The position numbers were made by a program, and so were the translations under genes. 64,000 bases of DNA from NCBI RefSeq assembly GCF_000027125.1, contig NC_017626.1; one strand, written 5' to 3'. Each line of letters starts with the position of its first letter. The stretch's first letter is position 1. This DNA comes from Escherichia coli 042. Lineage in GTDB: Bacteria; Pseudomonadota; Gammaproteobacteria; Enterobacterales; Enterobacteriaceae. The notes under the pieces were generated by a model, which was not told the DNA's origin, did not search any database, and was given only the letters and a program-made list of their open reading frames with translations. This document shows positions 16,896-17,127 of this stretch, piece after piece.

Positions 16896-16974
16896 TCTCT
16901 TTTGAACTTTAAGCTGAAAATGGCGCTGTAAAAGGCGTCATTTTCATATTGTAGACAACGTAGGCTTTGTTCAT

Positions 16975-17071
16975 GCCGGATGCGGCGTGACGCCTTATCC
17001 GGCCTACAAACCCTTCAAATCCAATAGATTGCAGTGAACTTGTAGGCCTGATAAGCGTAGCGCATCAGGCA
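16975..17071. repeat. REP (repetitive extragenic palindromic) elements, a pair
   Basis: GCCGGATGCGGCGTGACGCCTTATCCGGCCTACA (16975-17008) and inverted TGTAGGCCTGATAAGCGTAGCGCATCAGGCA (17041-17071), canonical enterobacterial REP sequences in the fdnI 3' intergenic region. Confidence 0.7.
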
Positions 17072-17094
17072 ATGTTGCGTTTGTCATCAGTTCT

Positions 17095-17127
17095 AAATGG
17101 CGCTTTATAAAGTGCCATTTTTTTATT
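17095..17127 (+). terminator. Intrinsic terminator closing the fdnGHI transcript
   Basis: AAATGGC...GCCATTT hairpin followed by TTTTTTT on the plus strand; overlaps the 3' end of the convergent antitoxin gene. Confidence 0.5.

Follow-up and report, generated by a model that had tools for sequence, protein, structure and literature searches.

The 227-nt spacer between the convergent genes fdnI and yddM (positions 16896 to 17122 of the window, the whole stretch of 64,000 nt of Escherichia coli 042 DNA that was analyzed) is best explained as the ancestral Rho-independent terminator of fdnGHI, duplicated around an inserted REP pair. We consider this reading likely as a whole, including the roles that it gives to the two hairpin copies (H1 and H2) and to Rho. 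We established directly the sequence anatomy, the allele series, the conservation of the hairpin in relatives, and the difference in predicted stability between the two strands. The elements of the spacer are more than a product of chance, because a 246-nt region covering them folds with z-scores of -6.3 (plus strand) and -5.3 (minus strand) relative to dinucleotide shuffles, the REPs recur elsewhere, and the hairpin after fdnI is conserved across genera.

TABLE 1 Genes, hairpins, and repeats at the fdnI-yddM spacer, in window coordinates
Feature	Position	Strand	Basis
fdnI, formate dehydrogenase-N gamma subunit, last gene of fdnGHI	16242..16895	+	ORF list, RefSeq of identical or near-identical E. 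coli records
H1, proximal fdnGHI terminator hairpin copy	16915-16946	+	Inverted repeat, fold
Direct-repeat copy 1, 34 nt (hairpin + T-run + ATTG)	16918-16951	.	Repeat search
Left flank of inserted REP pair, 23 nt	16952..16974	.	Missing from 50-nt "empty" allele (occupied/empty comparison)
REP1, y-type, GCCGGATGCGGCGTGACGCCTTATCCGGC+CTAC (body 16975-17003, CTAC 17004-17007)	16975-17007	+	Sequence, internal palindrome; CTAC foot at 3' end ("iREP" orientation)
BIME linker between the REPs, 34 nt, itself a dispersed motif	17008..17041	.	Genome search
REP2, z2-type, GTAG+GCCTGATAAGCGTAGCGCATCAGGC (GTAG 17042-17045, body 17046-17070)	17042-17070	+	Inverted relative to REP1; inverted repeats
Right flank of inserted BIME, 24 nt	17071..17094	.	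Allele comparison
H2, distal terminator hairpin copy (T7 run 17118-17124)	17095-17120	+	Top terminator-scan match, fold, d-score
Direct-repeat copy 2, 34 nt	17095-17128	.	Repeat search
yddM, HigA-family antitoxin, 94 aa	17123-17407	-	ORF list, RefSeq, Pfam HTH_3 E = 7.6e-10
HigB-like RelE/ParE toxin gene, 92 aa	17407-17685	-	ORF list, PF05015 E = 1.4e-17, RefSeq

The product of fdnI (217 aa) was 100% identical to its orthologues, and the gene ends with TAA at 16893 to 16895; the next 19 bases are unique, and then H1 begins. On the opposite strand, the stop codon of yddM (TAA) occupies 17125 to 17123. The HigB/RelE-fold toxin gene lies upstream of this HTH antitoxin gene and overlaps its start by 1 nt, and adhP is located on the minus strand beyond the toxin gene. 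By gene order, Pfam matches, and RefSeq names, the pair is a predicted type II toxin-antitoxin module of the HigBA type. The toxin gene is intact in the window strain, absent from K-12-type strains, and annotated as frameshifted in an O25b:H4 strain. In K-12-type strains, yddM is therefore an orphan antitoxin gene, found 145 nt from adhP, and in a spread genome sample the presence of the toxin and the number of REP units varied independently. At the other end of the operon, the fdnG reading frame was listed only from 12941 (12941 to 15352, plus strand, 803 aa), presumably because the ORF finder read the known in-frame selenocysteine UGA of fdnG as a stop.

Two copies of one terminator-like hairpin are present in the spacer. 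H1, which lies 20 nt after the fdnI stop, has a 13-bp stem that includes G.U pairs, a 6-nt loop, and a degenerate tail, UUUUCAUAUU, with no T7 run. The stem of H2 consists of 11 pairs. Each hairpin forms part of a 34-nt direct repeat; the two repeats are 79% identical, lie 177 nt apart, and flank the inverted REP pair, and both start with AAATGGCGCT and finish with CATTTT..ATTG. H1 and H2 can also be read as 27-nt inverted repeats that are 81% complementary. A plus-strand hairpin with a T7 run had already been noted downstream of the REPs, and this hairpin is H2. The earlier note, however, took it for the single terminator of fdnGHI and missed H1, which is the first to be met by fdn transcripts, so that the two hairpins are better described as a proximal and distal pair. 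It had also placed the hairpin across the last codons of the antitoxin gene, which goes too far: only the last 2 T's of the T7 run enter the stop codon, and the stem lies outside the coding sequence. Plus-strand RNA terminated here would be expected to have its 3' end in the stop or last codon of yddM.

Both hairpins are asymmetric between strands. The core stem energies were -9.0 kcal/mol (plus) and -2.4 kcal/mol (minus) for H1 and -9.8 kcal/mol (plus) and -6.3 kcal/mol (minus) for H2, and the whole-fold energy of H1 was -18.1 kcal/mol on the plus strand versus -11.5 kcal/mol on the minus strand. Where the plus-strand RNA of either hairpin has a G.U pair, the minus-strand RNA has a C.A mismatch, and the U-tracts on the minus strand are limited to UUUAGAAC and UUUUCAGC (3 to 4 U's). 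We compared the hairpins by their d-scores, a measure that reportedly originates with d'Aubenton-Carafa et al. in 1990 and that was used here for relative comparison only. The d-scores of 150 random 80-nt windows, taken on either strand, had a median of -63 and a maximum of -17. On the plus strand, the single-hairpin allele scored +34.6, H2 of the window +25.5, the first H1 copy of K-12 +4.7, and H1 of the window -8.4, which is borderline. On the minus strand, the single-hairpin allele was borderline (-1.4), and H2 and H1 of the window scored -40.9 and -54.0, respectively. As a stem-loop with a U-tract just 3' of the last gene of the operon, H2 is clearly predicted to be a convincing plus-strand intrinsic terminator of fdnGHI; by the same features, H1 is borderline. 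With its mismatches, short U-tracts, and low minus-strand scores, the window allele does not have the makings of a bidirectional terminator. The fdn terminator adjoins the antitoxin 3' end and, in this allele, looks unidirectional by prediction. The higBA/yddM unit is thus predicted to be one that probably has no intrinsic terminator of its own, and the ancestral single hairpin may have been weakly bidirectional.

The two inverted REP copies reported earlier are both present. Each is an imperfect palindrome within the range of ∼25 to 35 nt with a GTAG/CTAC foot, as REPs are defined (PMC3333891), and REP2 matched exactly in the window, with 0 matches expected in shuffles. The TGCC|TGAT site, a mark of z-type REPs that y-type REPs lack (PMC3333891), is present on the minus strand of REP2 and missing from REP1. 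The arms at 16994 to 17009 and 17040 to 17055 are 94% complementary. We take REP2 to be z2 and not z1 from the consensus sequences of the two types. Searched together with 8 nt of each REP, the linker had a median of 4 sites per E. coli genome and a maximum of 12; a 751-nt query had a median of 21 sites per genome due to its REP part, so that the sequence is highly repeated at many extragenic sites of one genome. With its GTAG/CTAC feet, its inverted y- and z-type copies, a dispersed linker of 34 nt, and an extragenic position, the pair is, by its sequence, a BIME. BIME-2 elements consist of z2 and y copies with a short S linker, and their tandem copies are separated by s, l, or r motifs. The z2 + y composition here and the tandem copies in K-12 would fit BIME-2, but the linker measures 34 nt and the inter-unit spacer is ∼80 nt long and contains the terminator hairpin, so that the pair may be either a BIME-2 or an "atypical" BIME.

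A gapless search of the window for the K-12 y-type REP consensus, allowing up to 3 mismatches, gave no match, since 1 nt is deleted from the copy in the window (GTGACGCC in place of GTGAACGCC); this copy was located by a regular expression. The linker had a full-length but sub-threshold match to the Rfam family ES036 (CssrF) at 17008 to 17049 on the plus strand (30.1 bits versus a gathering score of 37.6), and the REP arms had sub-threshold matches to the REP-derived family naRNA4 at 16969 to 17004 on the minus strand. Since all matches were sub-threshold and REP derived, we rejected assignment to a curated Rfam RNA family. Both of these "sRNA" families appear to have been built on BIME sequence. 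The IHF site consensus, which we take to be WATCAANNNNTTR, was looked for by eye in the linker and was not found there.

To describe the alleles of the spacer, we searched 5,426 complete E. coli genomes and then inspected five representatives; frequencies were taken from junction-specific queries. The shortest spacer, of 50 nt (the "empty" allele of L002 and L003, e.g., an O25b:H4 strain), contains one perfect hairpin, AAAATGGCGCTT-TAAG-AAGCGCCATTTT, followed by TTT. The 227-nt spacer of the window has one 177-nt unit with 2 hairpins and 2 REPs, and the 406-nt spacer of K-12 (L001) has two tandem units with 3 hairpins and 4 REPs. E. coli B (ATCC 11303, L005) has one unit from which H1 is deleted (33 nt), leaving the REP pair and H2 only. 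At least some part of the unit was found in 3,002 of the 5,426 genomes (55%). The right flank of the BIME (17071 to 17094) forms the unit-unit junction in K-12-type alleles, and this junction, which indicates at least 2 tandem units, was found in 947 genomes (17.5%). Across the complete genomes, therefore, ∼45% have no unit, ∼38% have one hairpin and REP-pair unit, and 17.5% have at least 2 units, and a spread genome sample agreed with these frequencies. Up to four matches were found in a few genomes, which may have more than 2 units.

The spacer thus constitutes a natural allele series (50, 227, and 406 nt, with 1, 2, and 3 hairpins and 0, 2, and 4 REPs) that could be used to gauge the effects of a REP pair and a duplicated terminator on mRNA 3' ends, stability, and antisense read-through. 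Within this series, the E. coli B-type allele serves as a natural H1 knockout; its deletion (window ∼16914 to 16946) is a clean 33 nt between the short repeats CTTT and TTTT. A further allele, in E. coli strain 7/2 (L004), has a single hairpin with IS200C straight after the T-run. The element sits exactly at the T-run/ATTG junction, before ATTGCGT (equivalent to window ∼17124/17125), and was seen in ∼7% of the sampled genomes (3 of 40 rows). The BIME-containing unit ends at this junction, too. IS200-family transposases are relatives of the REP-associated ones (PMC3333891), and the agreement in position could be meaningful or fortuitous.

Relatives of E. coli allow the hairpin and the BIME to be told apart. 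We collected 80 FdnI loci from other species, and some hairpin with a T-run was found 3' of fdnI in 58 of 79 loci. In all Escherichia, Salmonella, and Citrobacter loci with downstream sequence (L009 stops at the end of fdnI), the fdnI stop is followed after ∼16 to 23 nt by a homologous hairpin, (A)n[A/T]GGCGC...GCGCC[A/T](T)n, whichever gene comes next. The scan reported a T-run at all of these loci but L008 and L012. The stem at this orthologous position shows compensatory change, from ATGG/CCAT to AAGG/CCTT, as expected of a conserved intrinsic terminator. A single homologous hairpin and T-run follow fdnI in Citrobacter, Salmonella, Pluralibacter, and an Escherichia clade, and H1 is closest to the single hairpins of Citrobacter. 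The tight arrangement of one hairpin before a convergent yddM was found in one Citrobacter (58-nt spacer), in one Pluralibacter (39-nt spacer), and in the E. coli "empty" allele.

The left flank together with H1 is specific to this locus, with a median of 1 place per genome in the 5,426 complete E. coli genomes. Because the hairpin and its flank are locus specific, the linker and REP ends are dispersed, and relatives share the hairpin, we take the hairpin to be the old, native terminator of fdnGHI and the 143-nt BIME to be a newcomer with the hairpin duplicated around it. The order H1-BIME-H2 is shared by E. albertii and by a divergent Escherichia lineage, and H2 of E. albertii is orthologous. 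Across species, H1 copies group with H1 and H2 copies with H2, which suggests either that the duplication is old or that the allele was moved by recombination. The "empty" hairpin of E. coli differs from both H1 and H2, and the single-hairpin allele could, on a weak signal from short sequences, be an old H1 × H2 deletion product and not the ancestral state.

The fdnGHI operon is induced anaerobically with nitrate. Published K-12 transcript data bear on this spacer, which lies between fdnI (1551338 to 1551991) and yddM (1552398 to 1552682) in MG1655 coordinates. No Term-seq 3' ends are listed between 1551900 and 1552499 in aerobic MG1655 (Adams et al. 2021, PMC7815308), conditions under which the fdn operon was probably silent, and one further published Term-seq dataset has no fdnI/yddM entry. 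On the minus strand, a Rho termination region is placed at 1551885(-), antisense to fdnI and ∼106 nt inside it, by a comparison of K-12 with and without bicyclomycin (PMC7815308, Supplementary file 2). With bicyclomycin, reads in the downstream window rose from 10 to 116 and those in the upstream window from 71 to 89 (Rho score, 9.25; p = 1.6e-12), in windows of 800 nt, a scale at which the starts and exact stops of minus-strand transcripts are not localized (PMC7815308). It is important to note that these data come from K-12, which has the two-unit allele and no toxin gene, so that they are supportive and not decisive for the window strain. The rise in reads antisense to fdnI suggests that minus-strand transcription in K-12 can cross the spacer, with its 3 hairpins and 4 REPs, and that it is held back by Rho and not by the hairpins. 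Moreover, the location of the Rho region inside antisense fdnI argues that the toxin-antitoxin 3' end is probably not formed at a shared hairpin but would be set by Rho farther on. A strong Term-seq 3' end in K-12 lies inside yddM, at MG1655 1552652 (-) (Adams et al. 2021, PMC7815308). It corresponds to window ∼17377 (-), 31 nt into yddM at the end of a short G+C hairpin, CCCCGCCCGGGGG, which is also present near the 5' end of yddM in the window. This end could be a site of premature termination or of processing in the antitoxin mRNA. A literature search for yddM led mostly to an unrelated Bacillus gene that shares the name.

From these observations, we infer the order of evolutionary events, the termination efficiencies, and any interference between the transcription units as follows. 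The ancestor would have had a single hairpin, (A)4-5 TGGCGC...GCGCCA (T)7, ∼20 nt after the fdnI stop, and the T-run of this hairpin would have ended within the stop codon of yddM, the convergent, higA-like gene. The window allele would then have gained a 177-nt unit, made up of a 34-nt copy of the hairpin region and the 143-nt BIME (a y-type REP, the 34-nt dispersed linker, a z2-type REP, and two short flanks), to give H1-BIME-H2. The two hairpin copies could provide homology for unequal recombination, which would yield strains with 0, 1, or at least 2 units. Transcripts of fdnGHI would reach H1 first, where a stable stem with a weak U-tract would probably cause partial termination; those that read through would cross the REP pair and stop mostly at H2, the terminator with the intact T7 run. 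The outcome would be short and long 3' isoforms of fdnGHI mRNA, the long one with REP stem-loops in its 3' UTR. Transcripts of higBA/yddM, with no competent intrinsic terminator, would most likely cross the spacer and be stopped by Rho inside fdnI antisense. Transcriptional interference between the two units is possible on this arrangement.

Several other explanations were weighed. The BIME and extra hairpin might be selfish or neutral passengers with no effect on expression, H1 being a decaying duplicate. The ∼45% of E. coli genomes without the unit, the loss of H1 in E. coli B, the varying copy number, and the lost T7 run of H1 would all suit such a history, which we nevertheless hold to be somewhat unlikely: the plus-strand stem of H1 is still very stable in E. 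coli, K-12, and E. albertii (-18 to -22 kcal/mol), its substitutions keep plus-strand pairing by way of G.U pairs, and REP stem-loops in 3' UTRs are known to influence mRNA decay, and BIMEs to attenuate transcription, in general. We also think it unlikely that H2 alone serves as both the fdnGHI terminator and the toxin-antitoxin 3' end, as a shared bidirectional site with the REP pair merely upstream. H2 is indeed the strongest terminator-like site, is preceded by an A-run and followed by a T-run, and reaches the stop codon of yddM; the ancestral site, to judge from the perfect stem of the single-hairpin allele, its minus-strand tail UUUUCAGCUU, and its d-score of -1.4, may well have been bidirectional. 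However, a single shared terminator overlooks H1, and minus-strand H2 has a C.A mismatch, only three U's, and a d-score of -40.9. In K-12, moreover, minus-strand read-through into fdnI is under Rho-dependent control, with no stable 3' end listed in the spacer under aerobic Term-seq conditions. What stands of the earlier proposal of a shared 3' end is therefore the contact itself: H2 (d = +25.5) touches the antitoxin 3' end, and the tight single-hairpin spacers of Citrobacter, Pluralibacter, and the "empty" allele indicate that this contact is real and old. The shared function on the minus strand does not carry over to the window allele, given d-scores of -41 and -54 there and a K-12 Rho region that lies past the spacer.

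A crossed arrangement, in which H2 would end fdn transcripts and H1 would end those of yddM, would leave 3' UTRs complementary over ∼230 nt and open to RNase III-type, excludon-like mutual regulation. Each hairpin does have some U's 3' of it on one strand (UUUUCAGCUU for minus-strand H1), the centroid fold of the spacer allows long-range H1-H2 pairing, and minus-strand transcription in K-12 does traverse the spacer. Yet minus-strand H1 is the weakest of the four options, with a core stem of -2.4 kcal/mol and a d-score (-54) within the range of random windows; no K-12 minus-strand 3' end is listed at the fdnI-proximal hairpin (aerobic Term-seq), and the read-through is Rho sensitive and not hairpin limited. 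We consider this arrangement very unlikely. Least credible of all is a single MITE-type mobile element, H1-BIME-H2, whose terminal inverted repeats would be the palindromic hairpins, although H1 and H2 do read as 27-nt inverted repeats with 81% complementarity. The empty allele keeps one hairpin, relatives that lack the REPs have the same hairpin after fdnI, and the hairpin with its flank is found only at the fdnI-yddM locus. We rejected a MITE with hairpin ends, as relatives have the hairpin as a native feature of fdnI and the empty allele retains it.

Under the favored reading, a native terminator duplicated around a REP pair, the locus resembles several known systems. As in described BIMEs (Gilson/Bachellier; PMC3333891), inverted y and z2 REPs with GTAG/CTAC feet and a recurring linker lie between genes, and strains differ at one locus in whether the element is present and in how many tandem copies they have, as reported for BIME copy number at given loci in E. 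coli strains (Ton-Hoang et al. 2012, PMC3333891). Unlike in those BIMEs, the 177-nt repeating unit here includes the terminator hairpin of the host operon between REP pairs, and copies of this hairpin, not only REPs, flank the unit. Bidirectional intrinsic terminators between convergent E. coli genes have reportedly been described genome-wide by SEnd-seq (Ju et al., in 2019, cited in PMC7815308). The empty allele and the Citrobacter and Pluralibacter spacers are like these in having one symmetric hairpin with an A-tract and a T-tract in a spacer of 39 to 58 nt; the window differs in that its hairpin is duplicated, both copies are strand asymmetric with a poor minus-strand U-tract, and minus-strand read-through in K-12 is Rho controlled. 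REP stem-loops are said to have been recognized as 3' UTR mRNA stabilizers by Newbury et al. in 1987, and here, too, REP hairpins would lie in the 3' UTR of any transcript that passes the first hairpin. BIME-associated, Rho-dependent attenuation was reportedly described by Espeli et al. in 2001; the minus-strand Rho region of K-12 similarly lies just past the BIMEs, although at 800-nt resolution it is not assignable to a BIME. Finally, two plus-strand hairpins in series, the proximal weaker and the distal strong, resemble tandem (back-up) terminators, except that here they are paralogous copies of one ancestral terminator around an inserted repeat and their number varies between strains.

Because the locus is also present in K-12, it represents no new kind of element, and we regard it as ordinary, strain-variable E. 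coli intergenic DNA with a BIME copy-number polymorphism that involves no new mechanism. The general picture is unchanged: REP clusters and their polymorphism are familiar, and so are terminators located between convergent genes. The main value of the analysis is a better annotation, in which the 3' end of fdnGHI in this strain consists of a proximal and a distal hairpin around a REP pair. No flanking direct repeats scoring above 8 were found at ∼17 other REP sites, a small sample that included an additional 100 kb of MG1655 containing only one REP; a general duplication mechanism therefore cannot be invoked. It would be a bold conjecture, with little chance of being right, that terminator hairpins act as BIME landing sites through a single-strand, hairpin-guided mechanism of the RAYT/IS200 type, with insertion duplicating the hairpin. 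If it were true, "terminator + BIME" cassettes (0 to at least 2 here) would change copy number by recombination between hairpins and would tune 3' UTR length and convergent-operon read-through across E. coli lineages, and the IS200C in L004 at the same T-run/ATTG junction would be no coincidence.

Other insertions were seen in the spacers of relatives. In Escherichia sp. MOD1-EC7003 (L007, 3700 to 4210) and in several Citrobacter species (L012, L014, L017, L021, and L024, ∼3720 to 4430), yddM is separated from the terminator hairpin of fdnI by an extra segment with an ORF. These segments measure ∼0.5 to 0.9 kb, and the fdnI-yddM spacer is thus a repeated point of insertion.
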